Shown: piece by piece, positions 1,699 through 61,672 of the stretch
How the letters are laid out: each line of letters starts with the position of its first letter
How positions within the stretch are numbered: position 1 is the first letter of the stretch
DNA from: Candidatus Bathyarchaeota archaeon
GTDB taxonomy: Archaea > Thermoproteota > Bathyarchaeia > Bathyarchaeales > Bathyarchaeaceae
DNA: 64,000 bases
NCBI GenBank assembly: GCA_963806645.1
Contig: CAWDYQ010000005.1
Span: 79,778-143,777 of the forward strand
Direction: 5' to 3'
Position numbers and translations under genes: made by a program
Notes under the pieces: model-generated
The model's input: only the letters and a program-made list of their open reading frames with translations
Told to the model about the DNA's origin: nothing
The model's database searches: none

Positions 1699-1968
1699 TT
1701 ATCCAATTAACAAAACAGGGCTCTTAGATTCTCTGAAAAAATCTAATCCTTTTGAAGTTATTAAATACAAAGAATCATCTTTGCACGAATTCTTCTGAAT
1801 TACAAACCCTTTTCGATTAAGTTTATCTAACAATTTCTTCAATTTATTGCAATTAATATTGGCAATACAAGATATGTTGGTTATTTTTAAGGGACCATTA
1901 AAAATTAGTGATCCCAAAATTTCCTGTTCTATCGCACAACTATTTCTTCTCACCATCATTTTCCACAA
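1699..1968 (-). CDS. small winged-helix-like DNA-binding protein
   Basis: 89-aa track ORF. The pattern EILGSLIFNGPLKITNISCIANINCNKLKKLLDKLNRKGFVIQ...LYLITSKGLDF resembles a small archaeal wHTH. It abuts the upstream gene (1969) with no gap. Confidence 0.45.
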   Translation of the reverse strand: MWKMMVRRNSCAIEQEILGSLIFNGPLKITNISCIANINCNKLKKLLDKLNRKGFVIQKNSCKDDSLYLITSKGLDFFRESKSPVLLIG

Positions 1969-2322
1969 TTATTTCTTGTTATCATTATGATATTTCATAC
2001 AATCATTCATTTTTTCACAATCTAGACATTGTATTGGAATTACGGAATCACCAAAATGATCAGCTAAATAACCTAAATGGCGAGGACAATTAGAAACAAT
2101 CTCTTCCTCTAAAGGCGTAACACACGGTGTTTCCTCGTCAACCATTTTTTCAATCTTCTTTAGCGAACTTGTTATAATGGGGTCCAACTTGAAAAAACAA
2201 AAGGGACATCCATAAAATTTTTCAGGTGGTTTTTTCGAATTATCATCTATAACAATTAGATTTTCAAAAGCTTTTTCACAAATCGGATTTGGACAGATGC
2301 TCATTTCAACTTTTTTCATCAT
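1969..2322 (-). CDS. Cys-rich zinc-ribbon protein with a C-terminal Cys/His module
   Basis: N-terminal CPNPIC...CPFC ribbon. C-terminal CPRHLGYLADHFGDSVIPIQCLDCEKMNDCM (nt 1996-2088) has the same 31-aa spacing as the C-terminus of ORF 19758..20321. Confidence 0.55.
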   Translation of the reverse strand: MMKKVEMSICPNPICEKAFENLIVIDDNSKKPPEKFYGCPFCFFKLDPIITSSLKKIEKMVDEETPCVTPLEEEIVSNCPRHLGYLADHFGDSVIPIQCLDCEKMNDCMKYHNDNKK

Positions 2323-2926
2323 TTTCCCATAATCCCCATGTATTCAATTTTTAACTATTTGGTTTAGATGACTGCGATAATGGTATTTTGCGATATGACT
2401 TCATAATCATTAACTGAAGTATTAAGACTTAATATATATTAGTTCGGGCTATTTTAATTTATCTATATCTTAGAAATAAACTACTAAACTCATCTGATAA
2501 CATATCAAAATTCGCCATGAGCAAAATTGAACCTTTATTTTCTTATGCATATCAAACCAAAAAATAGACAAATATTCTTTGTTTAAAAATATCCTCAAGA
2601 GTATTGGGGGTTAAAATTTAATCCCTTAAAAAAAGGGGAGTTTAGAACTGTAACCAAATGATGAATTAATTTAGCTTGTAGTTTAATAGACCTATGTTAT
2701 TATGTCTTAAAAAAAGGGAAGTTGGAGTTAAGGGTAACCTAGATACTTTTAGTGTGAAAATCTGTAACCACAGTCTCGGCAAAAATATCGCTGAATTTCA
2801 CCGTTTTGCGTGTAACGTATTCCGTCCTTCCAGTTTCTTTTACTGTTGCATTCGGGACACTTTATTTCTTTAATTTCCGTTATATTCATTTTTTTCAACT
2901 CCTGATATATTTTATTTTTTTCCCAC

Positions 2927-2940
2927 AAAAAAAGGGGGGG
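2927..2940 (-). terminator. C7-T7 oligo-T signal downstream of the MFS gene
   Basis: The forward strand reads A7G7, so the minus strand reads CCCCCCCTTTTTTT. It lies about 180 nt after the MFS stop at 3123. Confidence 0.3.
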
Positions 2941-6162: not shown

Positions 6163-7466
6163 ATGTCAAATTTAAGCAAAGAACCATATTCGATTATGTT
6201 TTCGTCTTTGAAACATCCTTCCCGTCGTAAAATTTTGAGGATGCTCGCTGAAAAGCCAAGGAATTTTTCAAAAATTGAGGAAAAACTTGGAATTTCTAGC
6301 TCTAACTTGACATACCATCTTGAAAATCTTGGAGAACTGTTGACTAAAATGGATGATGGTAGCTATAAGCTCTCAAAGTTGGGGGAAGCTGCTGTTATTA
6401 CAATGAAAGGCGTAGAAGAGTCTCCTGATATCAAGTTCACAAGTCCTTTATCGTTGCCTTTGAGATGGAAGTCGCTTTTTGCTTTTCTTATAATTGGGAT
6501 TGTTATTTTATCTGGAGTGTCTTATGTGCAATTTGCTTCTTTTAATCAGTTATCTTCAGATTTTCAACAAATCTCAACAGAATATGAACATGTATTAGCA
6601 GATAACGAAAGATTGCTTTCATGGGGTAAATCTCCCACAAAGGTATTGGCTTTTTTGAAAGACGTGATTCATCTTGATATAACAAAATATCACTCAACCT
6701 TAGCAAGTAACACAGTAGAATATCGCAATGATTTAGGTGGAATTGTTGAGGAGCTTTTTAAATACACTCTTAATTATGAAGGAAGTACAGTTGATGTAAC
6801 TCTCAGGTTTAGAAATAATGAATTATCTAGATTTTATCTTTACGTGCTTGAGGGAACACCAATTTATTCTCAACTACAGCCAACTAATGTACTTGATGTT
6901 TCTAAGGGTATTATTGAAAGATACTACGAGTATTCTGGAGCATCATATTTGGAAGATATAAAAAACATTCTGATTAACGTTGATGAACCAGGAGATTTTG
7001 AAACAAACTCCGGTAATGTCAAGATTATTCGATCTGCTGAAGGAAATAATGTGAAAATCGAGTGTTTTTACATCGAAAATAATATTGACTTTAAATCAAA
7101 AAGTGTGGTCTTGAGCTTTGATAGCTACGGTTTTTTGGAGGTTCTAAATGACGATTGGACTATTTTTACAGTTGGGAGCACTGAAGTTAATATTTCCAAG
7201 GAGGAAGCAATAACCATTGCAATGGATTATGCTAGTGATTTCTCATGGGTTGCAAACGGTTTTAGGGTAAGCAATTTCACTGTAGTTTCTGACCCGTTAC
7301 AGCAGAATTATGGCCACATGCTAGAGAAGAACCTTTAGAGTTGATTCCATATTGGTATGTTACTTTGTATCTTGATAGAGTTTATCCTGAAAGGGTTGAC
7401 CGTCTCGCCGTTGGATTATGGGCAGACACCGGAAAGGTCAGCACATGTCAAACATTAAGTTGGTAA
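6163..7466 (+). CDS. membrane-anchored ArsR-type wHTH regulator with an extracytoplasmic domain; one frame break near 7293
   Basis: N-terminal LKHPSRRKILRMLAEKPRNFSKIEEKLGISSSNLTYHLENL is an ArsR/SmtB-like HTH, followed by one TM helix (LFAFLIIGIVILSGV). The track ORF stops at 7338. Shifting one base at gaccc-gtt continues as PVTAELWPHAREEPLELIPYWYVTLYLDRVYPERVDRLAVGLWADTGKVSTCQTLSW*, a PepSY-like tail ending at 7466. Confidence 0.7.
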
Positions 7467-53869: not shown

Positions 53870-56800
53870 TTACGTAAAGCAGATCGGGTTTCTTATGTAG
53901 TCTTGATTTCTAAGTTTCTTAACCAGTATTGACTTTTTGCAATCTAATGGGTCATCACTTTGTGTTATGTTGATTTCTCCATCAAACAGATTAATGACTG
54001 CTTTTGATTGATCTGGAGGGTGCATCTCTGGATCCATGACTGCCAACATAGTAAATCCTTTAGATCCCAAATCTGTAATCAATTCTGAAATCCATTTACA
54101 AGTTGCTTTAGCTTCATAATCCAATATAACATTAGAAACAGTTCCAATACAAATCCGCTTCTTCTTTGATGGATCTATACTTCGATAAGCTTTAGCTAAT
54201 GAAATAGAAAGATTTGTGAGATCAGTTTTACTTCTAAGCTTGAAGATGTTTGGTAATTCAGGAACTTGAGTTTTAGGTTTAGGATTACACAAGAACAAAT
54301 AGAAATTGGGATTATCTAGCAGATTTTCTAAACCATCTGCTTCTGTAGAAACATAGAATACTATTTCATTTTCATTAATTCCAGCTTCTAAGAAAGTTCT
54401 TAACAATATATTCTCTTTCATCACTTGGAGAACCAGTCAAAACAACGGCATAAGCTTTAGGAATACCACCTAATAGAAGTGAATCAAGTTCTGGGGTTCC
54501 AGTAGAAATTCGGTTAGAAAGAACAACCTCTTCAACGTTTATTTTAATAGATTTCAATTGAATAGATCTGCTCTGTCCCCGTTCATCTAAGTAATGAACC
54601 TTAGGTTTAAGCTGATATTCTCCTTTCTTTGAAGGTTGAAGAACAAGCTTCACTTCTACCAACTTGAGAGGAGCAAGCTGTTTCCCCTTCATTTTTAAAC
54701 AAGTATCTTCTATTCGGTAAATTTCAGGTTTCTTTACCACAACAAAGTCTGAAGGAACAAAATCATCCACGCTCATCAATAAGGCAGGTTCTCTACCAGC
54801 ATTAACAAACTCAACAGACAAACAGAAGGATTCACCAACCTTAACTTCTTTAACCGTAGTAACTAAATTAGCTTGGACATTTGCATGTTCAAACCTTTCT
54901 AAACCAACTGAGACTTCATTTGTTGGAGATGGTGCTGAAAACGATAAAGTACTTGAAGCTATTGTAGGTGCTTGCATCACCTGACTTAAAGATATAGCTA
55001 ATGTTTTTTCTTCTCTAACATTAACCAAAATTTCTTGCACCTGAGCTGTCTTTTCTGGTTGCTTAGCTTTCATAAATGAGCCAGCAGCAATCTGCAACAA
55101 ATTCTCAGCCATCTGATACTGCTTAGCCTTTTTCTCAGGATCAATCTCGCTTTCAGCCTGATTCATAAAAACATAAGCATCAAACAAACGAAGAGTAGCC
55201 TTAGCATACTCTGAAGCATTCTTAAATCCAGCTTGAAGGTAGCTGGTAGCAGCATCCTTAATGTATTGCTTAGCTAATGCATTTTCCTTTAAATCCATAC
55301 TAGTTTTATACTTTAAGCCCGAAGCTAATCCTCTACAAAAATTGCTGTTACCTAAAACCCAAAGACTGGCCTTTTTTGTGAAGCAGTGTTCTTTTGCTTG
55401 CTCAAAAAGTTCTGCAGCTTCTAGATAGGATTCAGAGGAGGTAGTTTCTTCTGCATTTGCCATCTTCTCCCAAGCCTGGCACAGAATCGCAATATATTTT
55501 AGTTCTTTACGTTCAGCCTCAACTTCTATCATATCAATTATTTCGGAGATACTTTGTGTTGCTTCTCTATATTTTCTTGAGCTAAGCAGATACTTGCCTT
55601 CTCTGTCTAACAGTTTTGCTTCTTCCATAAAGATACGTGCTTCACAGTATTTCCGTCTAACTTCAGAAGCTCCGAATAAATTCTGGATTATTTCCTTTTC
55701 ATCTGCAGAGGTGATTTGGGGCATTTTTTGTTTGATTGATTCTTGGGCTTTGCTAAACTGTTCGGATGCTTTTTGGAATGCTTGTTTTGCCTGTTGAGTG
55801 TTCTCTTTTCTGCTAAGTCCTTCTGCCTCTTCCATATGTGACCAAGCAAAATAATTGGATGCTAAATAACTCCAAGAATCTGTTGATTCATGAAGCTTAG
55901 CAGCCTGTTCAAAGTGTTTTTGAGACTCTTCGTAATCCCCAATGGAGTGAAAATATCTGGCTTGCTCGATTTTACTCCAAGCTTCCATATAAAAAAAATG
56001 TTCTCCGAAGAAGTCTTTGAGTTGTGAAATTTTTTTGGAGGCAAGGTCATATGCTTGCGATGCCAATTCATAACTTGTTGAGGCTTCCTGAAACTCACTA
56101 GCCTTATGTTGAAGTTGAGCTAGTTGCCAATATGACTCAGCCACATGCGTGGGCAATTCTGCTTTCCTAAAATAGGCTGATGCTTGCTTGTAGGCTTCCA
56201 ATGCTTTATGCAAACTTACTTGGTCTTGGGTTACGGAGAAAAATTGCTTTTGAATTCCTCCAAGCTGATGGTAGTATCGTCCGAAATTTAGATATGAGCC
56301 AGCAGTGAACTGCAGTTTTGGTGTTCTATTCATAAATTCGATACTCCTCTCAATTGAAGCATTTGCCTGATTTAGCGATTTGATCTTCTCAGTACGACAT
56401 GTTTCTGTTTTAGCAAGTTCCTTTTGTATCATCGCTAACTGACTGAAGTTAGCAGCAAAGAAAGAAAATGTAGCCTTACTCATTTCCTCTAAATACTTCA
56501 AATTATTCTTAATAGCAAATTGAGCTTTGTTGAGCAACTTTCTTTTTTCATCAATTTCGTTATTAGATACTGCAAGTTCCCATAAAACGTCGCTCAAAAC
56601 GACAGTAATTCGGTCATAATAATATTTCCAACCTTGAAAACGTTCTCTTTCCTTCTCAATTAGTTCTAATGCTCTTTCAAGAATTGCCTTTTTTGTTCTT
56701 GGATTAGTTTCATATTCTGCAAGACTATGAAGTCCATTACAAAAGAAATGAAGAGAATTATAAACACCTGGAGTGTTGTTGATTATTTGATAGTTATTTC

Positions 56801-57875
56801 CAGCTTCTCGGCTTATTCTTATGGCGTTCTTACAATACTCCTTTTGTATATTGGGATCTTCTTCAATCCAGGCCCTATTCAGAATTAACCAACTTTTCGA
56901 ATTTTTTCCATTACTTGTTAATAGATTATCGCGAGTAATTCTTCCATATTCTATAGTTTTCTCACAAAACTCCATTTGTAAGATGGGATTTGGAACAACA
57001 AACCTTGAGTTAGCAAAACTTACTGCAAAGGCTGACCAACCGATTAACCAAGCCTCATTAATCTGCTGAGCTAGTTCTAAAGCCTTACATGAGTAGTTTC
57101 GACTCTTCTCATTTAATTGCTTGAGTTTTTCTTTAGATTCAAATATCCAATTACTAAAAATGTAATACAAACTGGCAAAACAGTAAGCTCTTGCAAGCTC
57201 GAAGTCATCATCCAACTTCAAAAATATAGCTATTGCTTTTTCAGCGAGAGCTATACATTCTTTATAGATAGCGCTAAATTCAGAATGTGACGAAACAAGG
57301 GTAAATCGATCATGCCAAAACGTGCAATTTTCAATTAGATTATTGCATGTTTTGCCCACAGAATACATGTCACCAATTTGTTCATAAGCTTCTAGCACTT
57401 GATTTTCGAGATTCCACCACTTAGTAAGGAGATGCTTTTTTTGTGATGGGTATCTCTCAATCAAAGATTGTGTAAAGAAAACCATAGCATTAGCATGGTT
57501 AATTCTTGTCTGATAATTCTCTTCATTTATCTCAAGAAGTTCGGATTCTTTTTCATAAGCTTGTGTGGCCTGTTTCATGTGTTTTTGATATTCATTATTG
57601 CTTTGTGTTTGAAATGCAGCCTTATAGTAACAAAAACCAATGTTTTCTTGTATTTCAGCTGCTTTAAGTGCATTCTTATTTTTTATTAACAAATCGATTG
57701 CTTTTTTGTAATATTTTATTGCTTGAAACCATTCATACTTTTTCTCTAACTCTTTTGCTTTCGTTTGAAGAGACTCCAAGTTCCCGTCCTGCAAAGATAT
57801 CAACAGACAATTATTATTAGTGTAGCATTGAAATAATTTGTTACAACGTTTGTTGTGGGAAAATGCTATATTCAT
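53870..57875 (-). CDS. giant TPR-like repeat protein with a beta-sandwich domain and a degenerate KaiC/RecA-like C-terminal domain; one frame break near 54400
   Basis: The 1166-aa ORF contains about 950 aa of helical Ala/Tyr/Lys/Glu repeats (TPR-like). It is followed by VKVGESFCLSVEFVNAGREPALL... (CARDB/Ig-like) and ISTGTPELDSLLLGGIPKAYAVVLTGSPSDERE (KaiC-type N-terminus without GKT). It continues after a shift in ORF 53870..54424 (ILLRTFLEAGINENEIVFYVS...). Confidence 0.75.
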
Positions 57876-60101: not shown

Positions 60102-60875
60102 TTAGCCCCTCCCAAACAATGTTACGTCAGGAAAGATTTCAACGCCGTTGGTATCAATTGTATAAGGAACAACGTTTGGATTAATTTTAACACCTCTCAT
60201 TTTTGTAACCTGCAAAGCCCGTGTTGTAACTCCATTAGAAAACAAAGTCTGTGCAAGAATGACTCCATGCGCCAAATATTCTTCAACTGAAACCTTACGA
60301 TTAAGACTCAAACGTCCCAATTCTGAAGTTACAAGAGTGGTGATCCCTAAATCTGACAAAGACTCAAATAAATCAACAATAGAGTTTCTTCGCTCAATAG
60401 GATCAGGAAAGCGTTGAAAAAGTGTAGCAAGCGTATCCACTACAACTCTCTTGGCGTTAATTCTGTGAATTTCAGACTCTATTGATTCAACTAACCGGTC
60501 TATCGGTAGTTGCTTAGTTCTCAAGTTGGCTCCGTTTTCTCCAAATTTTGCTCCTAATGCTGCAGATCTTGACATTCGAGTAGCATCTAAAAAGACAAAT
60601 TTTCCCTCTTCTTCAGCTTTCTTGAAATCCCATCCAAAATTCTGCATTTCAACCAAATAATGGTCTTTGCCTTCATCTAAACTCACAAAAATTGCACCTT
60701 CCTCTAAGTCACTAATTCCTTTGTATAAGAATTGAGAACAAAGAATTGTTTTTCCAGATCCAGGTCCCCCAACAAGCAAAATTACTCTCCCTTCTGGGAA
60801 ACCTCCACTTACTAAATCATTTAATCCTGGGATTCCAGTTTCAACCGTATTCATTTTTTTCACCTTTTTAAACAA
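60102..60875 (-). CDS. single-domain KaiC/RadA-like ATPase (canonical Walker A)
   Basis: VETGIPGLNDLVSGGFPEGRVILLVGGPGSGKTILCSQFLYKG, with Walker B-like VVVDTLATL. 257 aa. Confidence 0.85.
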   Translation of the reverse strand: MFKKVKKMNTVETGIPGLNDLVSGGFPEGRVILLVGGPGSGKTILCSQFLYKGISDLEEGAIFVSLDEGKDHYLVEMQNFGWDFKKAEEEGKFVFLDATRMSRSAALGAKFGENGANLRTKQLPIDRLVESIESEIHRINAKRVVVDTLATLFQRFPDPIERRNSIVDLFESLSDLGITTLVTSELGRLSLNRKVSVEEYLAHGVILAQTLFSNGVTTRALQVTKMRGVKINPNVVPYTIDTNGVEIFPDVTLFGRG

Positions 60876-61035: not shown

Positions 61036-61431
61036 TTATGTTAAACATATTGGATTTTTTATGTAATCTTGGTTTCTGAGTTTCTTTACTCTTATCGATT
61101 TTTTGCATTCTAATGGGTCTTCGGTTTGGGTGATGCTGATTTCCCCATCAAAAAGTCAATGACCGCTGTGGCTTGGTCTAAAGGATGCATACCTGGATTC
61201 ATTACTGCTAAGCATTGTGAAGCCTTTTGAACTCATGTCAGTGATTAGTTCAGCAATCCATCTTCTGGTTGGTTCTGCATGATGACTAATCAGCACGTCA
61301 GAGACTGTCTCAACACAGATTCGTTTATTTTTTGAAGGTTCAACGTTACGATAGGCTTTAGCAAGAGATATTGATAGATTAGTTAAATCAGTTTTACTTC
61401 GAAGCTCGAAAACACGGAAATCTATACACAT
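61036..61431 (-). pseudogene. truncated, frame-broken paralog of the KaiC-like C-terminus of the 53870..57875 gene
   Basis: FELRSKTDLTNLSISLAKAYRNVEPSKNKRICVETVSDVLISHHAEPTRRWIAELITDMSSKGFTML aligns with FKLRSKTDLTNLSISLAKAYRSIDPSKKKRICIGTVSNVILDYEAKATCKWISELITDLGSKGFTML. Shifted frames continue as AVMNPGMHPLDQATAVI and FDGEISITQTEDPLECKKSIRVKKLRNQDYIKNPICLT*. Everything N-terminal to this is missing. Confidence 0.7.
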
Positions 61432-61437
61432 CTAATC

Positions 61438-61571
61438 AACTTTGAAAGTGACGAATGGCACGTCGCTACTGCCACAAGTTTGGACGAAGAAAACGAAACT
61501 TATAGAAGCTGGATTTGAATATGTGCGGTATAGCGACAAAAGACGAAGTCGCTATCTATCAGAAAACGTAA
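61438..61571 (+). pseudogene. decayed gene tail (WHVATA...KLIEAGFEYV...IYQKT*) immediately 5' of tRNA-Glu
   Basis: Three frames read in turn NFESDEWHVATATSLDEE, KLIEAGFEYVRYSDK and DEVAIYQKT*. This resembles a C-terminal motif (EAGFEYV...FRKRK) that I recall from archaeal integrase/HTH-type ORFs. That is unverified memory. Confidence 0.3.
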
Positions 61572-61594
61572 GTAGAAAAGTAGTATAGTTCAGG

Positions 61595-61672
61595 GCTCCG
61601 GTAGTATAGTCCGGTTAAGTATGACGGCCTCTCGAGCCGCCGACCCGGGTTCGAATCCCGGCCGGAGCACCA
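61595..61672 (+). tRNA. tRNA-Glu (anticodon CUC), CCA encoded
   Basis: Manual cloverleaf: acceptor GCUCCGG/CCGGAGC, D arm GUAU-AGUCCGGUUAA-GUAU, anticodon stem ACGGC/GCCGC (one A-C mismatch), loop CUCUCGA. T arm CCGGG-UUCGAAU-CCCGG, discriminator A, CCA. GC-rich against the AT-rich background. Confidence 0.9.

Follow-up and report, generated by a model that had tools for sequence, protein, structure and literature searches.

A tyrosine integrase stub beside tRNA-Glu(CUC) in a Bathyarchaeota contig: the probable remains of an integrative element of a Bathyarchaeia-wide family

We analysed a 64,000-nucleotide stretch of DNA from a Candidatus Bathyarchaeota archaeon (GenBank assembly GCA_963806645.1, contig CAWDYQ010000005.1, positions 79,778 to 143,777 of the forward strand), hereafter referred to as the window, in which an earlier note made from the sequence alone had described a rearrangement scar next to a tRNA-Glu gene. 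At this site the tail of a tyrosine integrase meets the tail of a large chromosomal gene. It is likely, in our judgement, that the site is what remains of a decayed integrative element belonging to a Bathyarchaeia-wide family, and that an illegitimate deletion at tRNA-Glu(CUC) came later.

The remnant on the plus strand (61402..61575) is identified by its homology as the last 56 codons of a mobile-element integrase, and corresponds to positions 366-419 of the hidden Markov model (HMM) of the family. It begins at 61402 (KLENTEIYTH...), carries the codon of the catalytic tyrosine at 61423-61425, and ends in a beta-alpha-beta-beta mini-domain with the EAGFEYV...AIYRKRK tail of the family. Alignment to relatives places three +1 insertions in the stub, one at ~61495 and two in runs of A at 61538-61541 and 61563-61566, and these divide it into four pieces (KLENTEIYTHLINFESDEWHVATATSLDEEN / KLIEAGFEYVRYSDK / DEVAIYQK / RK-stop). 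The three-frame remnant reported by the earlier note is thus real, with an earlier start (61402) and four segments. Its proposed end holds for the uncorrected frame, which stops at the TAA at 61569-61571; the restored frame reads on through ...AIYQKRK to a TAG at 61573-61575, which leaves 19 nt up to the tRNA.

The identity of the stub comes directly from searches with the frame-corrected remnant, a test that had been suggested for it. The restored peptide matches 168 proteins, with a best E value of 3.6e-24 and identities of 89-91%, and the family HMM matches the window at the stub over positions 366-410 with an E value of 5e-10. The best 120 of the 168 matches are all 45-95 aa in length; the few named ones among these are from Bathyarchaeia, and some carry the labels integrase, XerC or PF00589. 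Submitted alone, the 48-aa stub matched 0 Pfam families, for which it is too short. The stub begins seven codons before Y355 and after H346, so that the tyrosine is the sole catalytic residue kept out of six. The other five are lost, and with them any enzymatic capacity: the stub is an integrase by descent that cannot be an active enzyme. HMM positions 71-365 of the integrase were absent from the window in a search with the family HMM.

A scan of one genome per species gave 80 loci (cited below by L numbers), nearly all of them in Bathyarchaeia metagenome-assembled genomes (MAGs). Among these loci a C-terminus of the stub type closes open frames of 400-450 aa. The earlier note took the EAGFEYV motif for the C-terminal tail of archaeal integrase/HTH-type ORFs, and for integrases this proves sound, as relatives of ~400 aa carry both PF00589 and the catalytic residues. 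Intact copies of the gene are found in other genomes; an example is the 399-aa integrase of L012 (9059-10258), which scores 63 bits on PF00589, and scores of 63.4 and 67.5 bits were obtained for full-length relatives against a cut-off of 27.1. The residues R233, K259, H320, R323, H346 and Y355 (R, K, H-x-x-R, H, Y) are invariant in 38 full-length members. An AlphaFold2 model of the relative P0122, with a predicted local distance difference test (pLDDT) score of 82.6, comprises an N-terminal Zn-ribbon, a recombinase fold and the beta-alpha-beta-beta mini-domain at residues 366-402, the mini-domain (~40 aa) being modelled with pLDDT >90. The top Protein Data Bank (PDB) fold matches of this model are XerA, IntI4, lambda Int, XerH and Cre, with a probability of 1.00. 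Judged by conserved residues and predicted fold together, the full-length relatives are bona fide tyrosine recombinases.

The family is large: a cut-off of E <= 1e-10 takes in more than 3,800 proteins, and annotated members go under the NCBI name of tyrosine-type recombinase/integrase. A tblastn search of deposited plasmids and phages with a full-length integrase returned generic matches alone, at <=29% identity. Integrases that are 38-52% identical were also seen on nine IMG/VR contigs (14-40 kb), where they lie at or within a few hundred bases of a contig end and are in some cases followed by tRNA-Ser, and in L121 a D5_N/DUF5906 primase-helicase lies directly upstream of the integrase and tRNA-Glu(CUC).

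The relationship of these integrases to tRNA genes, which the earlier note had raised as classic integration targets, is borne out by the arrangement of the loci, where it is observed directly. In 30 of the 80 loci a same-strand tRNA begins within ~40 nt of the end of the integrase frame; the stop codon is 7-42 nt upstream of it in 29 of them, and in L029 the frame overlaps the tRNA by 14 nt. The tRNAs concerned are Glu-CUC (14), Glu-UUC (5), Val (5), Arg (2), Gly (1), Pro (1) and two of an odd 'ctcg' type, and in 14 more distant members an opposite-strand tRNA follows instead. The odd type is an ARAGORN call, 'tRNA-??? (ctcg)', made for the tRNA after the integrase in L012 (10275-10390) and L018, and its sequence points to a tRNA-Glu(CUC) whose anticodon region is followed by an insertion or intron.

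In seven loci the first 21-27 nt of the tRNA are repeated directly at a distance of 1.6-8.2 kb upstream, with repeats that begin at tRNA position -1/+1. The matches are 25/25 at 3.6 kb in L012, 23/23 at 2.3 kb in L031, 23/23 at 2.8 kb in L017, 21/21 at 1.6 kb in L002, 22/23 at 1.6 kb in L056, 25/27 at 3.0 kb in L006 and 24/24 at 8.2 kb in L052. The repeats of L012, at 6693 and 10274, enclose an ATPase_2/WHD_MCM gene, a 357-aa open reading frame (ORF) and the intact 399-aa integrase. At attL the native upstream region is followed by the tRNA 5' fragment alone, and in L012 and L002 a native TTTAAA (TATA-like) box stands ~30 nt before this fragment. The att core begins after the integrase stop codon. 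These direct repeats of the tRNA 5' end indicate that the elements integrate at the 5' end of tRNA genes, and the family does so with its own gene unsplit, the integrase being the last gene of the element and reading towards the tRNA. The inserted element comes to lie upstream of a tRNA that stays intact. L012, with att sites outside an intact gene, thus has the arrangement of a type II (non-suicidal) integrase, and the window holds a remnant alone.

Two further observations concern the ends of these elements. A motif, GAT(T/A)TCTCCCGCA, is conserved 15-22 nt inside attL in L012 (~6735-6747), L031, L017, L002, L056, L052 and L006, and occurs ~45 nt after the integrase stop in L131. It marks the left end of the element beside the att core whichever tRNA is targeted, and it could be a candidate integrase arm site or another cis element. 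In L120 the integrase is followed by the 5' 38 nt of a tRNA-Val alone, and an integrase gene of SSV type (PF16795; 3114-4040) starts right after this fragment, which looks like a stacking of two kinds of integrase at a single tRNA-derived site.

The tRNA-Glu(CUC) gene of the window (61595..61672, plus strand) was found at the start position first given for it by both ARAGORN and Rfam (RF00005, 59.3 bits). Its 5' ~23 nt (61595-61617) match the att core that is directly repeated in other genomes, and by this correspondence the start of the tRNA would be the attR side of a former element. The 19-nt spacer between the integrase stop and the tRNA (61576..61594, plus strand) is element-derived and contains, at 61579-61589, the family-conserved sequence AGTAGTATAGT, which is kept at the same spacer position in 27 distinct tRNA-Glu-linked sequences. 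This sequence is an imperfect direct copy of tRNA positions 6-16 (GGTAGTATAGT), and an analogous degenerate copy of tRNA positions is present in the spacer of tRNA-Val-linked elements; the spacer repeat may be a putative core-type binding site.

The other end of the element is directly seen to be missing from the window. A duplicate of the tRNA-Glu sequence, which had been proposed as an att site to look for, is present in the seven other loci and was not found here: searches with 31-mers at <=3 mismatches, with a 20-mer at <=2 mismatches and with blastn-short at word size 11 gave no second tRNA-Glu 5' or 3' half in the window, and hence no attL. A window search for the left-end motif GATTTCTCCCGCA gave just chance-level matches with 2 mismatches, and no cargo homologues were detected in the window when the ATPase_2/WHD_MCM, ORF357 and ORF131 proteins of relatives were searched for. 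With neither an attL/attR pair nor an intact integrase nor cargo genes, the window does not contain a complete element.

On the other side of the junction lies a pseudogene fragment on the minus strand (61036..61410) that consists of the last ~125 codons and the stop of a KaiC-like ATPase domain (PF06745 KaiC, E 2.5e-07), with two internal frameshifts. It is a paralog of the giant TPR and KaiC-like gene at 53870..57875 (minus strand), as had been read by eye at ~130 codons and about two-thirds identity: blastn against the 3' end of the giant gene gives 73% nt identity over 377 nt (E 2e-67), and the frame-corrected fragment is identical at 91/124 aa (73%, E 9e-71) by blastp. The point at which homology was first thought to stop, ~61432, needs revision. 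The ATG at 61431, which opens a 91-aa ORF, is fortuitous, and paralog homology in blastn ends earlier, at 61410. Across this fragment and the stub there are 5 frameshifts in ~545 nt, compared with 1 in ~8.4 kb of neighbouring genes, and this concentration in the two remnants indicates a decay that is local and real, not a general sequencing or assembly error.

The stand-alone KaiC-like ATPase gene next to the fragment (60102..60875, minus strand; PF06745, E 2.7e-59) has orthologues in L085-L103 and served as a synteny anchor, orthologous contigs being collected by a metagenome scan with this neighbour. In L097, L089 and L090 the place upstream of the KaiC orthologue is taken by a full-length, single-frame giant-type gene of ~1,340 aa, positioned and oriented like the window fragment. 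It follows from these full-length genes at the equivalent place that the fragment is a chromosomal gene minus ~1,200 codons, a truncation that is read directly from the comparison with orthologues and that agrees with the loss proposed in the earlier note. On the tRNA side, L019 is syntenic at 75% nt identity over 2.6 kb, through a flippase gene. The in-window giant gene is itself split into two overlapping ORFs near 54392 by a single extra A (AGA-A-GCT, +1); its orthologues in L089, L090 and L097 form one continuous frame, and it is either a recent pseudogene or the product of a sequencing error.

The two homologies overlap at the junction (61402..61410), which contains a microhomology of 6-9 nt. 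AAGCTCGAA is common to both, with AAGCTTGAA as the giant-type sequence and AAACTTGAA as the integrase-type sequence. DNA homology to the integrase begins at 61401/61402 in most of ~45 aligned loci, and by 61421 in all but one. The microhomology block, AAGCT[C/T]GAA, bears no resemblance to the att core. Because the junction shows microhomology and not att-like sequence, the loss most likely resembles an ordinary illegitimate deletion after integration, and not an accident of integrase-catalysed insertion or excision. The former element and the loss of paralog sequence, as originally put forward, are upheld, and the idea that insertion or excision of the element itself removed the paralog gives way to a probable ordinary deletion.

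The history that we propose would run as follows. A small integrative element would have inserted at the 5' end of the tRNA-Glu(CUC) gene, with displacement of the native promoter and the 5' tRNA fragment (attL) to the far end of the element. One illegitimate deletion, with its ends in the 6-9 nt of microhomology, would then have begun at integrase codon ~345, run through the rest of the element with its attL and ended inside the paralog. Lost with it would be the cargo genes, attL and, counted from their starts, ~345 codons of the integrase and ~1,200 of the paralog. The integrase and paralog tails would thereby have been fused tail-to-head at 61402-61410, and frameshifts would have accumulated afterwards in both. 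The survivors of the attR-proximal end would be the 56 integrase codons, the spacer and the tRNA. In this sequence of events we infer the single deletion, its microhomology mechanism and the role of a promoter in the element, which is taken up below.

Several points weigh against this history. The state of the locus before the deletion has not been recovered, and the contig of the closest tRNA-side relative, L019, ends 160 nt upstream of its stub. One deletion is indistinguishable from several successive ones, and the microhomology is read from the paralog and from homologs as proxies for the true parental sequences. Two of the three stub frameshifts sit in runs of A and could be homopolymer errors. 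Finally, the candidate TATA-like sequence in the A-I-Y codons of the window is degenerate (TATCTAT).

Some of these points bear on the number of steps, and here the stubs of other genomes are instructive. Integrase stubs eroded from the 5' side are common beside tRNA-Glu elsewhere, with the tRNA-proximal end kept, and are truncated at varied points in the range of HMM positions 253-393. A comparison across genomes revealed no fixed truncation hot-spot and no shared sequence at the stub boundaries. The truncation point of the window (HMM 366) recurs in L002-L004 and L068, and the stubs of L056, L073, L036 and L041 start at 360-363. The survival of the tRNA-proximal end fits deletions that are tolerated while sparing the tRNA and whatever drives it. 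Around single tRNAs, stubs in tandem or a few kb apart were seen in L075, L030, L012 (10405-10869), L038, L039 and L058, which indicates repeated use of one site by successive elements; those of L075, L030, L012 and L038 include tandem arrays.

Stubs of this kind with varied truncation points are common without a truncated gene as neighbour, which is what would be expected if the scar of the window had formed in several steps, with erosion of the integrase from its 5' side first and the truncated paralog brought alongside later by at least one unrelated rearrangement, be it a deletion, an inversion or a translocation. The longer stub of L019 (HMM 303-419), the closest syntenic relative, would likewise speak for erosion in steps, and synteny past the paralog is not conserved among the relatives. 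We nevertheless consider such a stepwise origin unlikely. The two truncated genes meet directly in a shared 6-9 nt microhomology with nothing between them, for which a single event is the simplest account.

The conservation of the tRNA-proximal end also raises the question of whether stubs are of any use to the cell. When an element inserts at the 5' end, the native promoter stays behind at attL, and expression of the tRNA would then have to start from element DNA. In several genomes no more than ~54 codons of stub remain before the tRNA, which would confine any promoter to the last ~190 nt, and in most relatives a TATA-like box, made up of the A-I-Y codons (GCNATATAY), stands 36-50 nt upstream of the tRNA. 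The sole plausible present role of the window stub would be that of upstream, promoter-bearing DNA of the tRNA. We see only a small chance that stubs upstream of tRNA-Glu are kept by selection in general, whether as an obligate promoter, as an expressed mini-domain of ~40 aa, or as a landing pad for rebuilding hybrid integrase genes.

For the stub of the window in particular we consider it very improbable that it is anything other than junk, whether through domestication of the mini-domain as a small protein or because its DNA serves tRNA-Glu as a landing pad or promoter module. When stubs are compared with one another or with full-length genes, they do differ mainly at third codon positions (7, 6 and 23 at positions 1, 2 and 3 between the window and L019). 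Most stubs elsewhere keep an open frame, the confident model of the mini-domain would suit a folded small protein, and the short stubs before tRNAs described above would suit a promoter module. Set against this are a window frame that lacks a start codon and is interrupted at three points, and truncation points that vary. The stubs were moreover found by protein-based searches, which favour intact frames, and a third-position bias is also expected if each stub came independently from a recently functional integrase.

The window contains a second trace of the same integrase family, and this allows a different reading of the stub. A 59-aa ORF at 2749..2928 (minus strand) encodes the N-terminal Zn-ribbon of the family (HMM 23-70 of 419, E 1e-18), and no other part of that gene accompanies it. 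To its left lie a 117-aa Zn-finger-like ORF without a family (1969..2322, minus strand) and an 89-aa HTH_45 winged-helix ORF (1699..1968, minus strand), and together these may be a second decayed element with no tRNA nearby. Suicidal integrases, whose genes are split on integration, are common in archaea (PMC8371274), and the stub could on this precedent be the int(C) of an SSV-type suicidal integrase with the Zn-ribbon ORF, 58.5 kb away, as its int(N), in a provirus of ~58 kb; alternatively, one large inversion could have passed through the gene. We regard both as highly improbable. Intact members of the family sit between att repeats outside the gene (L012), the att core following the stop codon, and truncation points are scattered across genomes and not fixed. 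The two fragments lie on opposite strands and are not contiguous, as ~295 codons are missing between them (HMM 70 versus 366), and the genes in the interval are ordinary chromosomal ones with synteny in relatives. Had an inversion taken place, the N-terminal part of the paralog should lie to the left of 2749, and no such piece was found anywhere in the window.

It is equally far-fetched that the junction is an assembly chimera in which two populations were joined through a sequence common to several genomes. Many co-occurring Bathyarchaeia do have the stub-plus-tRNA module at 74-86% identity, and the contigs L001, L027 and L121 break right at it. Yet the two sides meet at the module's outer edge in a similarity of 6-9 nt, too short for assembler k-mers, and the flanks are syntenic with L019 (tRNA side) and with L097, L089 and L090 (KaiC side), as would be expected in one lineage.

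A decayed integrative element of this family, which we favour for the window, can be compared with several known systems. Type II archaeal integrases (pNOB8-type, lambda-like), as defined in section 6 of PMC8371274, resemble the family in that att lies outside the gene, the gene remains intact when integrated, and the element is bounded, as in L012, by short tRNA-derived direct repeats. The family differs from them in targeting the 5' end of the tRNA instead of the usual 3' part, with the integrase reading into the tRNA, and in its N-terminal Zn-ribbon and C-terminal mini-domain of ~40 aa. The pTN3-like integrases of Thermococcales share with the family an attB in the tRNA 5' half and a reconstituted tRNA that would have to be expressed from element-borne sequence. 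Targeting of the tRNA 5' half was described in a 2021 review as unique to this suicidal pTN3-like group among archaeal integrases (PMC8371274, section 18). It is the att geometry that sets the two apart, as the pTN3-like enzymes are SSV-type with att inside the ORF, whereas in the family the core follows the stop and genes stay intact.

In mode of integration, CalSub-E1 of Ca. Caldiarchaeum subterraneum and the TKV4/MVV-type proviruses share with the family the rare targeting of 5'-distal tRNA sequence, a form of integration described as 'considerably less frequent' (PMC6563490, section 7). Those are single cases, whereas the mode is recurrent in the large Bathyarchaeia family. The best match to the family among solved structures is XerA (PDB 5hxy), with a sequence E value of 2.6e-10, a Foldseek E value of 6e-13 and the same catalytic residues. 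XerA, an archaeal chromosome-dimer resolvase, differs in having neither Zn-ribbon nor mini-domain, in acting at dif, and in being neither tRNA-linked nor element-borne.

The coding content of the window as a whole is low for an archaeon, with open frames of at least 120 aa covering ~69% of its length and ~15 gaps exceeding 600 nt, which suggests either that many genes are small or broken or that the assembly is prone to error.

For annotation, the ORFs at 61.0-61.6 kb are pseudogene tails and are not to be called as genes. The locus itself probably records one past integration and one deletion and is in this sense an ordinary genomic scar. What it leads to is of somewhat wider use: Bathyarchaeia hold a very large, uncharacterised integrase family that targets the 5' ends of tRNA genes with its own gene unsplit, is carried by plasmid-like elements of 1.6-8 kb and viral contigs of 14-40 kb, and leaves characteristic stubs beside tRNA-Glu, tRNA-Val and tRNA-Arg. 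The succession of EAGFEYV...YRKRK, spacer and tRNA provides a simple signature for integration sites in Bathyarchaeia MAGs, and the family widens the picture of 5'-half targeting beyond the suicidal pTN3-like integrases (PMC8371274).

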